A DNA stretch of 64,000 nucleotides from a plasmid. The stretch lies in the sequence record NZ_CP011600.1; one strand, 5' to 3'. The first letter of the stretch is position 1. Each line of letters opens with the position of its first letter. The notes below the pieces were generated by a model. It was given only the letters and a program-made list of their open reading frames with translations, was not told the origin of the DNA and did not search any database. Shown piece by piece: positions 9,529-20,245 of the stretch. A program made the position numbers and the translations under genes.

Positions 9529-10920
9529 TTAACGTTCTTTCTGAATATGTCGGGTGATTTCAGGTGTCGGGAGTTCACGTTCTGGCTCCCGGCCACGGGT
9601 TTCTGCTGGCATCTGCGGCTGCGCCTCTCGCGCCAGTTCACGGGCGGCGCTCTCCACCGCCTTAGACGACACGGTGACGGAGATTTCATTGTCAGCGGCC
9701 CGCGTCCGTCCCAGCTCATCCTGTACCTGCCTGACCACCGATGCGGGAATGATTACCCCATCCGGCGTATCAGCAGGCAGCGAGATACCCCGGGGCAGAC
9801 CGCTACCGGAAAGGGCATTCAGAACAGCGCTGATCGCCGCATCCGGTGCTGCACGGTCATCCCGGGCAAGGACCTCTGACGCCTGTCTCACTAATGCGCT
9901 GTAATCGGGTGAAGTTTCCCCCGGAAGAGCAGGTAACTTAGCCTGAATGGTTTCCGCCAGCCGTGCAGCCAGCTCTGCTGTCAGCGCTGCTTTTTCCAGT
10001 CCGTCAGCACGTTGCTGCGTGATTTCTCCCGTTCTGATTTCCGGTAACGCTGTGGCTTTATTCAGGGCGTCAAGCGCATGACGGAGTGCCGCACGGTCAT
10101 CCGGTACGGGGACATCTGATGGCAACCGGCTGAGAAAGTCCTGCAACTCCGCCCGCACAAGGCTGAGCAGTGTCGCATCCGGACGTTTGGCCTGTTCATG
10201 CTGGCCGCCGGCCACTCTGAGCAACTGAGCCGACGGAGACTGCCTGCCGGTTAGCAGCAGCACCCCCACATCAGGCTTATCCCGCGCGGCGGCCAGTCCC
10301 TGTGCCAGATCGCTGACGATAAGGGTTTCACCGCTGCGGCTTTTCTGCAGGATGGCTGCCTGTGCGCTTTCCGTGGCCAGTTGCCGGGTTTTCCCGGGCG
10401 AAATGACACCTTTTTCATGGAGGAGCGGAACCAGCGTCAGCCCGGCGGCTTTGCCGTTACCGTCAAACGCTGGCAGTGCAAGGTGCGGCTGCGGGTATTT
10501 CCGCGTGGGCGGAATAATCCGGGCCGTTACGGACGCGTCGGCAAGCCCCTGGCCTTTCAGAAATGCACGGCCGATAGCCGTTTTTGACACCGTTTTCCCC
10601 ATTGCCCAGATGCTCCGGGCCTGCTTACGTTCAGTCTCGGGTGACAGGGCGTCATGCGCCGTTTTAATCCCCTTATCCTCCCGTGTGAGTGCCTCCACCC
10701 ACTTCTGGAGACTGTCGGTATACACCTGAACATGCTCCTTTGCCCTGGACAGACTGATGTAAAAGGCCCGCATGCCACTCATCACACCACGCCGCCCCAG
10801 CGCACTCTCCAGCGCGATGACGAAACGGCTGCTGGCAGCCTGCGCGCCGTACCCGGTGACGGCCCACGCATAATCGATGTGCCTGTCAGCCTGAATCTCT
10901 CCCGGATTGATGACCTTCTC
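9529..10920 (-). pseudogene. traI: traI C-terminal segment (distal helicase / C-terminal domain), severed from the rest of traI by transposon insertion
   Basis: Translation (...RAFYISLSRAKEHVQVYTD...RKYPQPHLALPAFDGNGKAAG...) aligns with F TraI ~1440-1756 (AYVALSRMKQHVQVYTD...GRKYPQPYVALPAFDRNGKSAG). The reading frame runs up to the transposon IR at 10921. Confidence 0.8.
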
Positions 10921-10953
10921 GGGGTCGGTTCCGGCTGAGGGCGAAATGACACC

Positions 10954-15911: not shown

Positions 15912-18900
15912 TTCTCCCCTGCGGCACCACTGAGCACAATATCGCCGTTATCCCACAATGCCGACACGCGGTACTGTTCGTGTGCCGCGTGGCCCATATC
16001 CCGCCGGGTCTTGCTCATCCTGATGCTGTCTCCGGTACGAAGCTCCAGTTTCTCCTGTCTGAAGACCTCAATTTCGGTGGCATTCAGTTCAGCAGGCGAG
16101 TAGTAGCGCATCCTGCCCTCTTCATCCCGCAACAGGACATTCTTTGTGCCCCGGTCAACACCCGTCACCGTGAGGTAACGTTCGCTGGCCAGCACCACCT
16201 GCCCCGTCTGCCAGGCATCAATACGGTTAAAGTCATGCCGCCCGCCACTGACACGCTCCAGTACCGGTACCACAACAACCCTCTCACCGAGTTCTTTTGC
16301 GTCGACCATCGCCTGGTGAATGCCGGCATTGACCGCACGCCGGTCGTCATTAAGCGAGACCACAATAAGCGTTTCTTCGCGCGCCGCAGGCGTCCGGCTC
16401 ATATAGTCGCTGACAATCGCATCAATCACCGTGGGACCGGGCTGCAGGTATCCGTTTTCATCCTTTTGCGGTGGGGGGATCTCGGTTACCGATCGTGCCG
16501 GTACCGGAGAACCTGACTGGCGCGGAACGGCGCCCGGTGACACCCGGTCAATCTTCTCTAAGGCAGCCACGGCTTTGTTCTCAATGACGCTGTAGACTGC
16601 ACCGCGCAGGTCATCATTAAGCTGACGTTTAATTTCCTTCATCACGGCAATGTCGATTGGGCTGCGCTCCTGAAGAAGCCGGAACGGTGAACCGCTTTCC
16701 GGAGACTCCAGCTGTGCCACGTCACCGACCATCACGGCGCGGCCATTGCCCGCCGCGATGGCGCGTAAGGCTTCTGCCGTGTCCTGGTTACCCAGCATGG
16801 AGGCTTCATCGATCAGAAACAGGGAGTTGTGATAACTGACCTGCTCCCCGGCCGCCGTTCGCTGCTGCCAGTCCATCAGGAAGGATTTCATGGTCTGGCC
16901 GTCGATGCCGATACCCCGCATCTCCTTCACCGCACGGTGTGTCGGCCCCAGCCCGATGATGACCGGACGTACCGGCGCTGGCAGAGTATCAATGGCCGTT
17001 TTCACCGCGTTAAATTGTGTGGTTTTACCCACACCGGCGTACCCCTGCACCGCCGTAAAGCGATCGGTACTCTGCAGGATAAGGGAGGAGGCTTCACTCT
17101 GGCCGGCAGTCAGGGTGGCAGGCAGAACCGCTGCGGGATCACCCATCAGTGGTGCCACGGTATTTTTACCGGCTTCCACCTCCCGGATGATGGCTTTTTC
17201 CATCTCCCAGGTGACCCGCGCAACATAGCGGACCTCACCTCCCCAGGGCACTTTAATGAGTTCACCTTCACTCGCAAGACGCGCAATTTCGCCAGTCAGT
17301 CCCTCTGTGGAACCGAGAAAACCGGCCGCCTTTTCCGTCAGCAGCGCGGAAGAAAACGCCACCTCACGCATGTTGGCCACTGCGCGCGATACCGCTTTCT
17401 CCACATCCGTCAGCAGACCGGTTTTCAGCGCACTGATGGCTTCACCGGCGTCCTCCCGGCCACTCAGCTGACGCACCAGTGCAAGGGGAGATCGGTTGTC
17501 ACGCAGTCGCGCCAGCTTTTCCTCTGCCCTGTCCTGCGCCTCACCGGTAAAGATCTCCGCCACGTGCCCCGACTGGGCCAGCATGTTTATCATGTTCGCC
17601 GACAGATCGCGCATACTCAGCGAGGCCAGCACGGTCCCGTGTTCATTATCCCGGCTGCCCGGTGCACTGACATAACCGTGCGTGACGTAAAGCGGCGCAT
17701 CCGTCCCCAGACGAAGCGGTTTCTTTTGCCCCTCCCGCTGTACGGTCAGTTCCCCCTCGCCGACGGCGGTCACCGTAAGACGGTCGCGGGCTTTCAGCCC
17801 GGCAGACCTGTCGCCGGCCAGCGCAAACAGCTGCTCACCCTGCGCCACACTCAGTTCACTCTGTGTGAACAGACGCCAGTCACCGCTGAGCGTACTCAGT
17901 TTCACCCGGCTCAGCACACCGTCACTGTCAATCAGCGACAGCATACGGGTGTCTTCGTGCACCCTGTCGATAACATAATGACGGGTCTCATCCTTCTCTG
18001 TCCGGTCTTCCAGCACCATGCCGGCACGGTAGGTTCCGGGCAGTTTACGCGTCCTGGTGTTCACAAAAACCGGGGTGCGTGCCTGGATCGTGACGGTATC
18101 CTGTCCCAGTTTACCGGCGTTCTGCAGTGCTTCACGGATGGCGCCGGTCAGTTGCAGCTGTTCACGGACACCCGCCACTACCGCCGTGACCGGACTGTCC
18201 GGTCCGCTCAGTTCCGCAAAGCGCTCAGCCAGTACCTGCTGGCGTTCCCGTTTGTCCTGAATACTGATGACCCGGGCTTCCAGTTCGGATGACGGCGCAG
18301 TGAGGCTGAAGCGTTCGGCGCCTGCAGAGGCCAGTACTGAAAGCGCACTGGCATCCGACTGGCGACCCGCGCTGTCCAGGAACAACAGCTGGGCATTTTT
18401 CTCTCTCGCCTCGCCCGTAAGAACCAGCATCTCTTTCAGCCCCAGCTTTTCCGCCCCCTCAACGATGAGTGTGCTCTGTATGCCCAGGCTGAAAGAACTG
18501 TCCAGCACACGGCTGCGTGACAGGATGTCATTTTTCAGCAATGGGGATTTACCGAGGCTCAGCGCGCGTTCCGCTGAACTGGCCAGCACCCTGACCTCCC
18601 GTCCCTGTTCACGTGACATTGTCACCAGTTCTTCGGCGGTTTCGCGCAGACGCTGTACCGATGCCGGCGCATTCAGTATGGCCACGGGGATGCGGGACGC
18701 TTTCTGCAGATGCGCAGGCGGCTCTTTTGCTGTGGGCCTGAAACTGACGACTTTGTTCTCTTTCAGTATGTCTGCCGTCAGCGACTGCACGGACAGCTCA
18801 TCCAGCAGGTGAATATGTGAGGTGAAGACGCCCTTTTCACCATCAAGCGGCGTAAGCAGATCTTCACTGATAGCCTGTCCGATGGCACGGCGCAGGTCCG

Positions 18901-20245
18901 GCAGAGACTGCTGCATTTCGCCGGATTCGTGTGCCGTCAGAAGAAGGTCGCCGTAAGTAAAACGGGTACGTGTGTCACTCAGAACAGAGATGGCATTGCG
19001 CACCGCCGCCATCGCTTCCGGAATATCCGGTAATGTCTCTTCCGGTGCCGACAGTATGGCCTCCCGGGCTTTTGCCTCGTTAATCACGCTCCCGATATCG
19101 AAACCGACATCGTCCATCTGTCGCTGCCAGCGCTCACGCAGGCGCGCACGTCCGTCGGCCGTTTCAGGTTTGACGATTGGCGCATCCGGCTCCCTGACAG
19201 ATTCCTGCTCCGGCTGTTCCACGGTTACCGGACTCACACTCCGGGGGGCGGTCACCTGCGGTGCCTCTCCGGATACGTGGTGATACTCTGCCGCCGCCGG
19301 TGTTCTCCCTGCCGTTACGGACACGTCTGCCTCCCGTCTGTCAGGTGACGGAACGGGACTGCTCTCAGACTTCTCCCGACGGCCCTTATCTTTTTCTGTC
19401 TGCGGCAGACTGTCCTCGCCGTAGCGACTGATATCCTGCTTGCGCTGGCGCGTATCGAGCGCCGCCACATCGCGACTTTTCAGTGAGGCTTCGTCACCCA
19501 CGCGGGCGACAATCTCCCGGTGGCGGGAAGAGAATTCCTCGATCACTTCCCGCGAAAAGCCTTTCACTTCCCATAACCCGTGTGGCCCCCCGGTCAGTTC
19601 GGTCTCATACCCTATCGCCTCGGTCTTTCCCTTCATGATGTTCCGGTAAATTTTTCCGTAGATAACCTGGTTGCGATAGACCGTCTCGATAAACCCTGCG
19701 CCGTGAATGGTGTCCGTGGCCAGTGCTTTCCATTTACCGTCGAGCTCCGTCACGTTGGCCACTACCGCATGCGTATGGATTTCCGGGTCAAGGTTACGTG
19801 ACGTGTCGTGCGTGAACAGCGCGGCCACCATCTTGCCGGTGGGAACAATACGGGTCACCCCCTCCTTTGTGTCACGGGCGCTCACCATCTGTTCCATGAC
19901 AGCCAGCGTTTCCCTGACGGCGTCGTGATGCGCCTCCAGCAGACGTTTGTCGCCGCCCGCGAGGATCAGCATTGAGACACTCTTGGGGGCGGAAAAGGTA
20001 AAATCGTGTCCCGGACGATGGACATGGCTGCCCTGCACCTCTTTCCCCAGCTCAGTGCCGTTGGGGAGTTTGCCGTGCAGGATTGCGGTGAACGTATCAA
20101 GGTCGACCGGCCCCTCCAGTCCCAGTTCTCTCGCCCCTTCACCCAGCCACTGCGTGGGCATGTCGTCCAGAAAATAGTAGTTATCCTTGCTGCTGTAGTA
20201 ACTGGCAGCGTCGGCGGCCGAGGCCACCGGAGCAGGCGTCATCAT
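15912..20245 (-). pseudogene. traI: traI relaxase/helicase, N-terminal ~1445 codons (relaxase plus helicase domains), truncated by transposon insertion
   Basis: N-terminus MMTPAPVASAADAASYYSSKDNYYFL...HVHRPGHDFTFSAPKSVSMLIL..HTHAVVANVT matches the F TraI relaxase motifs (Y16 region, HxH). Walker A GYAGVGKTT in the helicase. The ORF stop lies inside the transposon IR. Confidence 0.85.

Follow-up and report, generated by a model that had tools for sequence, protein, structure and literature searches.

Plasmid record NZ_CP011600.1 contains a conjugation gene, traI, that is split by a transposon, which is itself split by an insertion sequence (IS). The locus raises the question of how this nested arrangement came about and whether a plasmid that carries it can still transfer itself. 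A stretch of 64,000 nt of the record, referred to as the window, was analysed, with the insertion region at 9529-20245. The outer element is the Tn3-family transposon Tn5403 and the inner one is IS5075. It is very likely that Tn5403 inserted into traI and that IS5075 followed into the Tn5403 transposase gene tnpA, with TraI cut in its helicase, the plasmid left non-self-transmissible and the transposon left non-autonomous.

Insertion of Tn5403 into traI

The elements that define the outer insertion are listed below (IRL and IRR, left and right terminal inverted repeat (IR); TSD, target site duplication).

9529-10920, minus strand: traI 3' fragment, consisting of the duplicated codons E1444-K1445, then residues 1446-1906 and the stop; carries PF07057
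10916-10920: left TSD copy, TTCTC
10921-10959: Tn5403 IRL, 39 bp
15873-15911: Tn5403 IRR, 39 bp, perfect inverted copy of IRL
15912-15916: right TSD copy, TTCTC, present as a single copy in plasmids with the empty site
15912-20245, minus strand: traI 5' fragment, native codons 1-1445, assigned by Pfam and alignment

Tn3-family transposition into traI duplicated TTCTC at codons 1444-1445. The repeat GGGGTCGGTTCCGGCTGAGGGCGAAATGACACCCTAAGC at 10921-10959 is matched by its exact reverse complement at 15873-15911, and TTCTC is found directly before the left repeat and directly after the right one. In-silico deletion of 10921-15916, that is, of the transposon and one TTCTC, yields an open reading frame (ORF) of 5,721 nt (1,906 codons) with 0 internal stops. 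The restored traI differs by 1 nt (window 18604, G548R) from a gene annotated as 'MobF family relaxase' on plasmid pMRY16-398_1 of Phytobacter sp. MRY16-398. The empty site is found in PLSDB on five Phytobacter plasmids that match both flanks at 100%, the flanks meeting at a single TTCTC. Because five plasmids carry the uninterrupted site in this form, chance is excluded as an explanation of the pattern.

An earlier note on this DNA had described perfect 39-bp repeats with a TTCTC duplication and read them as a clean and recent Tn3-family transposition into traI. The repeats and the 5-bp duplication are borne out on re-inspection, and the frame is in exact register, continuous over 1,906 codons once the insertion is deleted. 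The sister plasmids without the insertion are uninterrupted, and a recent event is supported by flanks that are 99.98-100% identical to those of the empty-site plasmids.

Two other origins of the interrupted allele were weighed. Tn5403 and IS5075 are multicopy repeats of the kind that often break or misjoin short-read assemblies, and a repeat-induced misjoin might have placed a copy of Tn5403::IS5075 into traI. However, a misjoin would not give a 5-bp duplication abutting both complete IRs, nor traI halves in register, and such an artefact is extremely improbable. Alternatively, the allele might have been imported by homologous recombination from a plasmid already carrying traI::Tn5403. Recombination does occur in this backbone, as shown by the mosaic tra region, whose genes share 92-100% amino acid identity with those of the sister plasmid. 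Import is nevertheless very improbable, given that neither insertion junction is present in any PLSDB record, that the left junction was not found in a one-genome-per-species collection, that neither truncated product (1,456 aa and 418 aa) is on record in the gene-position index, and that the flanks stay at the identity given above for kilobases on each side. Since junctions and truncated products were not found there, this exact traI allele is apparently undeposited in the collections searched.

Matches of 10-19 nt of flank beside IRL in other plasmids were considered as a shared insertion site and rejected. On inspection the flanks are unrelated, and BLAST had extended through mismatches.

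Position of the break in TraI

The window TraI has the same domain order as F/R1 TraI (MOBF; PDB 5N8O, 9F0X) and matches the solved structures strongly (E = 0). Unlike F/R1 TraI, to which it is ~41% identical, it is 150 residues longer (1,906 vs 1,756 aa) and is split into 1,445 + 461 residues.

The 5' ORF (15875-20245) encodes 1,456 aa, native through K1445 and followed by 11 foreign residues from IRR (GSVPAEGEMTP, then a stop). Pfam places TrwC (PF08751, residues 10-273), TraI_hel_assoc_N, TraI_2B and AAA_30 (residues 1045-1233) on this product. The relaxase motifs SYYSSKDNYY (YY...YY) and HTHAVVANV are present, in line with the catalytic tyrosines and histidine triad of TrwC-type relaxases, as is the Walker A motif GYAGVGKT. 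Altogether, the 5' fragment holds the relaxase, the vestigial helicase and, of the active helicase, the N-terminal part, 1A, the first half of 2A and most of 2B. The 3' fragment carries the remainder of 2B together with the second half of 2A (HIDYAWAVTGYGAQA... and ...YISLSRAKEHVQVYTD) and TraI_C (PF07057). The two stretches of 2A correspond to motifs V and VI of SF1B helicases; by alignment, the conserved HGAQG and LSR motifs are located on the detached fragment. The first in-frame starts of this fragment are GTG 10785 and ATG 10782, a stop in the traI frame lies inside IRL, and the resulting ORF (9529-10785) comprises 418 aa. Useful amounts of the detached fragment are unlikely, and complementation by a separate half RecA fold is not expected.

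Residue K1445 pairs with about F/R1 residue 1381 when the protein is aligned to an F-type TraI (1,756 aa). The cryo-EM structure of R1 TraI shows the 2B/2B-like part (1255-1397) as an insertion within the RecA-like sub-domain 2A, the halves of which rejoin around it; the essential components of the site that binds single-stranded DNA include region III (1420-1428), the last ordered helicase residue is 1473, and the C-terminal domain extends to 1756 (PMC5422253). The break precedes the second half of 2A including region III and lies ~95 residues upstream of residue 1475. A complete SF1B helicase, with 1A, 2A and 2B together, is encoded by the reconstructed gene and not by the 1,456-aa polypeptide. 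Judged from the sequence, the TraI helicase is destroyed, besides the detachment of the C-terminal domain.

The earlier note had the relaxase plus helicase separated from the C-terminal part. The break instead falls inside the active helicase; the figure of ~460 detached codons holds (461 codons plus stop), while their supposed start at the C-terminal domain boundary does not, as they begin within the helicase. A milder reading would have only the non-catalytic C-terminal domain detached, with an active relaxase-helicase and merely reduced transfer. It draws on the finding that residues 1-1475 of R1 TraI keep trans-esterase and helicase activity in vitro (PMC5422253), and Pfam TraI_C does lie entirely on the detached fragment. 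With the break inside 2B/2B-like, ahead of region III, and with HGAQG and LSR detached, this reading is improbable.

Predicted transfer phenotype

Because the helicase itself is broken, transfer is predicted to be abolished rather than impaired. Matson and colleagues are said to have found the helicase activity of F TraI essential for strand transfer. By analogy with F and R1, self-transfer of the plasmid very probably requires a matching TraI provided in trans. Nicking of oriT by the relaxase domain may persist, yet a functional unwinding motor would be missing, with the pilus, the type IV secretion system, traD and traM intact.

All 33 other coding sequences of the sister plasmid between the lytic transglycosylase gene and traD are full length in the window, free of stops and 92-100% identical at the amino acid level, as the claim of otherwise intact tra genes had it. 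A second relaxase was not found in the 64-kb window, where the only TraI matches are the two fragments. Of the two outcomes named in advance, conjugation defective or impaired, the first is retained as a predicted null phenotype and the second is disfavoured by the broken helicase.

Organization of Tn5403

Apart from its terminal repeats, the transposon comprises the following parts.

10954-11559, minus strand, same direction as traI: tnpR, serine resolvase of 201 aa, intact (PF00239)
11560-11653: region between tnpR and tnpA, presumed to hold the res site and divergent promoters, with 0 mismatches to intact Tn5403
11654-14077, plus strand: tnpA 5' fragment, 807 codons, with a TAA stop formed at the IS junction; PF13700 (DUF4158) and PF01526 profile positions 1-239
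15403-15878, plus strand: tnpA 3' fragment, codons 808-965 and stop; PF01526 profile positions 247-389; 152-aa ORF at 15420-15878

Without the inner IS, the element measures 3,664 bp and agrees throughout (0 mismatches) with an intact Tn5403 annotated on Phytobacter ursingii plasmid pCAV1151-83, where it is labelled 'Tn3-like element Tn5403 family'. Tn5403 is a Tn3-family unit transposon of Klebsiella and other Enterobacterales with the order tnpR-res-tnpA and no cargo, and the window copy is identical to it at every base once IS5075 is removed. Shared characteristics are the terminal IRs of the form GGGG...TAAG(C), the 5-bp TSD, a transposase with DUF4158 and DDE_Tn3 and a divergent serine resolvase. 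The IR ends read GGGGTCGG...CCCTAAGC and are perfect over 39 bp; IRs of the Tn3 family are ~38 bp long, start with GGGG and finish with TAAG. The res function of 11560-11653 is presumed from the organization of the Tn3 family. Unlike intact Tn5403, the window copy has its tnpA interrupted after codon 807, and its insertion site in traI is unmatched in PLSDB.

Removal of the IS restores a TnpA ORF of 965 aa. The break at codon 807, the ~1.3-kb IS110-family element in tnpA and the nesting as such had all been read correctly: the ORF at 11654-14077 ends there, the DDE_Tn3 profile is divided between the fragments (positions 1-239 and 247-389), the inner element is IS5075 itself, and both tnpA and traI are exactly restored on removal of the respective insertion. 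The window tnpA shows the variants V75I, A182V and T324A, caused by three non-synonymous single-nucleotide polymorphisms (SNPs; 11876, 12198, 12623). Pseudogene decay was considered for these SNPs and rejected, as they constitute a common Tn5403 backbone variant found in many intact copies.

The truncated TnpA is without the last third of the DDE domain, and the window Tn5403 would for this reason be non-autonomous. The verdict 'probably immobile' in the earlier note is too strong, because both IRs, tnpR and the intergenic region are intact and identical to those of active copies, which makes mobilization in trans possible. Intact Tn5403 is widespread, with copies in >2,100 PLSDB plasmids. The window copy could thus be non-autonomous and still be moved by a TnpA supplied in trans, and precise excision of the IS could be a route to a restored Tn5403 TnpA.

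IS5075 and its target in tnpA

Three features describe the inner element.

14076-15402, plus strand: IS5075 (IS1111 subgroup of the IS110 family), 1,327 bp, with boundaries that can be shifted by 1 nt within a T run
14142-15146, plus strand: IS5075 DEDD transposase gene, 334 aa, with PF01548 (N-terminal) and PF02371 (C-terminal); annotated as IS5075 family transposase in identical copies
15243-15278, plus strand: predicted target-recognition part of the IS5075 guide (seek/bridge) RNA, proposed from a two-strand match

The IS matches the IS5075 copy of S. Typhi plasmid pHCM1 at 100% identity and IS4321 at ~93.5%. Its subterminal IRs are perfect over 12 bp (ATGGTCACTCCC / GGGAGTGACCAT); 6 nt separate ATGGTCACTCCC from the left end, and 4 nt separate its complement from the right end. 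The IS makes a net addition of exactly 1,327 bp and duplicates none of the target.

The insertion site in tnpA, ATATTTT^CCGTT after codon 807, copies the IR core of the Tn21 family (AACGGAAAATA on the other strand); the target core in Tn5403 tnpA is ATATTTTCCGTT. For comparison, six IS5075/IS4321 copies from other plasmids were used. All six are located in terminal repeats of the Tn21 family, at ...GAAAACGGA^AAATAAAGCACGCTAAG (one with ...AATTATCC...), in constant orientation. On the same strand the Tn5403 tnpA site reads ...CACAACGGA^AAATATCAGG..., and it shares the core AACGGAAAATA and the orientation with the six IR insertions. The IRs of Tn5403 itself are without the Tn21-family core. The insertion of IS5075 is not random; it is recurrent and sequence-directed, at a 12-nt mimic of the Tn21-family IR core.

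Targeting of the Tn21-family terminal IRs by IS5075/IS4321 is attributed to Partridge and Hall (2003) as cited in PMC8269217 and PMC11187229. The insertion in tnpA resembles such insertions in its orientation relative to the AACGGAAAATA core, in the subterminal IRs and in the lack of a TSD. It differs from them in that an internal mimic in the coding sequence of tnpA was hit, 509 bp from the IRR end. An IR mimic in ureC of Klebsiella pneumoniae is a documented recurrent target of IS5075 (PMC8269217). The ureC::IS5075 insertions likewise affect an IR-like coding target, arose in recurrent independent events in many lineages and inactivate the gene; unlike ureC, the gene struck here encodes a Tn3-family transposase, so that one mobile element disables another and no host trait is lost. 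In the searchable literature, no description of IS5075 within Tn5403 tnpA was found, and papers naming both elements merely list them together.

The 3' non-coding region of IS5075 (256 nt) contains AAAACGGAAA, a GGCT/AGCC hairpin and then TATTTTCTG, at 15243-15278. AAAACGGAAA equals the bottom strand of the target and TATTTTCTG the top strand, and the two overlap at the insertion point. Each segment matches the Tn5403 site over 8 nt; both 8-mers co-occurred in 6 of 20,000 shuffles of the region. IS4321 carries the identical guide segment. The seekRNA of IS1111-type elements has the same arrangement, with the segment complementary to the top strand first (PMC11187229). By this analogy, the target in Tn5403 tnpA is probably read by a guide RNA encoded by IS5075. 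An Rfam scan gave no match to a curated bridge or seek RNA family in IS5075; its sole match was CopA at 7395-7482.

Recurrence and order of the insertions

Nine composites, the window's and eight from other plasmids, share a length of exactly 4,991 bp and an IS at transposon position 3155; they come from at least seven contexts. Composite L017 is flanked by a TSD of its own, TAAGA, while most composites are without a TSD. IS4321 is found at the identical tnpA position in other plasmids. At least 48 PLSDB records have the occupied junction and 2,195 have the empty site, i.e. the tnpA mimic is occupied in ~2% of the Tn5403-bearing plasmids. A natural before/after pair is provided by the IncL/M plasmids pKPC_CAV1042-89 (L022, NZ_CP018669.1) and pCAV1151-83 (L023, NZ_CP011599.1) from the same hospital collection. 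Tn5403 occupies one site in both, and neither its flanks nor its backbone differ between them; IS4321 is present in one, at the exact tnpA position of the window's IS5075, and absent from the other. Since the two share site, flanks and backbone and differ by IS4321, the insertion of an IS into a resident Tn5403 is documented. Backbone variants, the use of IS4321 and this pair together argue for at least three independent IS insertions at the tnpA site.

A single step would also account for the locus: with IS5075 already in tnpA, an intact Tn5403 in the cell supplied TnpA in trans, which carried the 4,991-bp composite into traI. The variety of contexts of the composites, the TSD of L017, the two perfect IRs in the window and the frequency of intact Tn5403 in the same host range all favour this route. 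On the other side, the window backbone differs from all eight other composites at 11876, 12198 and 12623, whereas the window variant is common among IS-free copies of Tn5403, to which the window backbone is identical. None of the one-piece PLSDB composites listed matches the window at 100% in backbone variant and IS junction. The backbone SNP variant thus serves as a marker that the window IS insertion was independent, and insertion in place is documented by the plasmid pair. The one-step route is unlikely, though it deserves some weight.

The most likely order, reconstructed from these comparisons, is therefore left as Tn5403 first and IS5075 second. An autonomous Tn5403 of 3,664 bp would have transposed into traI of an IncF-type, MOBF/MPF_F Phytobacter-type plasmid. 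Later, IS5075 would have integrated into the resident tnpA after codon 807, at the copy of the Tn21-family IR core, leaving a Tn5403 TnpA without the end of its DDE domain.

Several points weigh against parts of this account. The order of insertion draws on parsimony and on the analogy with the plasmid pair, and recombination between Tn5403 copies could also yield the combination of backbone and IS seen in the window. The transfer defect is extrapolated from F/R1 TraI, at the low identity noted above, and guide-RNA pairing for IS5075 from a sequence match and the seekRNA analogy. Moreover, the window covers 64 kb of a plasmid of probably >200 kb, and the host genome is outside view; a second relaxase, an intact Tn5403 or further IS5075 copies could lie there.

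A partial copy of the Tn5403 repeat in traI

The traI 3' fragment contains GGGCGAAATGACACC at 10396-10410 (plus strand), an exact 15-nt copy of positions 19-33 of the Tn5403 IR, oriented as IRL. It is located 511 bp from the insertion point and pre-exists in the empty-site plasmids (8097-8111 in sister plasmid L001). When the window was shuffled 100 times, no match turned up. Transposases of the Tn3 family bind the IR in its inner part. Within 0.3-2.5 kb of flank per insertion, other Tn5403 insertions showed no partial IR copies nearby, and the 15-mer may be a coincidence. A further proposal, in which a putative pseudo-site tethers TnpA and makes this traI lineage a preferred Tn5403 target and, separately, the IS5075/IS4321 guide RNA systematically disables Tn5403, is highly doubtful.

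Neighbouring genes and replication region

Downstream of traI lies a gene for a DsbA/ScsC-like thioredoxin-domain protein (8655-9455, minus strand), probably co-transcribed with it; a gene of the phospholipase D family comes next. The insertion of Tn5403 may exert a polar effect on both, unless read-through from tnpR, which has the same direction, compensates.

The tra region (33700-44000) is mosaic relative to pMRY16-398_1. traA-traV, trbB-traT and traD are 100% identical at the protein level, and identity falls to 92-96% for trbI, traW and two hypothetical genes, a pattern suggestive of a recombination patch in the tra operon. A gene for a YadA-like trimeric autotransporter adhesin of 984 aa is found between traT and traD (23450-26401, minus strand), and an rfaH paralogue follows traB (45211-45720, minus strand). 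Both are intact and also present in the sister plasmid.

The CopA-like antisense RNA at 7395-7482 (plus strand; Rfam RF00042, 71 bits) adjoins the IncFII repA/tap replication control region. At 3104-5518, a 2.4-kb segment is present that is missing from the otherwise 100%-identical sister plasmid; it contains an ORF for a RepB/Rep3-type replication initiator (4231-5112). The best PLSDB protein match of this initiator is 92.8% identical (Salmonella plasmid), with ~88% identity to Pantoea plasmids. Near-identical DNA for the segment was not found in PLSDB except over the initial ~255 nt of the query (window 3000-3254), and the segment may represent an additional replicon module that is poorly sampled.

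Implications

Every component of the locus is already catalogued at 100% identity, and both the disruption of transfer genes by transposons and the nesting of IS elements are commonplace. The current understanding of conjugation, Tn3-family transposition and IS110-family recombination is unchanged. Mildly new are this traI allele and the role of Tn5403 tnpA as a recurrent target of IS5075/IS4321 that fits the guide-RNA model, which is unstated in the searchable literature. The locus is a clean natural example of two layers of inactivation by mobile elements. The tnpA site adds a further target outside the IRs for the IS5075/IS4321 guide RNA and is a possible natural test case for the target rules of seekRNA and bridge RNA. 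For plasmid annotation, traI would be a pseudogene and the plasmid non-self-transmissible. With its MOBF relaxase domain and the full set of MPF_F genes, it would still be scored as 'conjugative' by relaxase-based typing. The plasmid may be mobilizable if a matching TraI is supplied.

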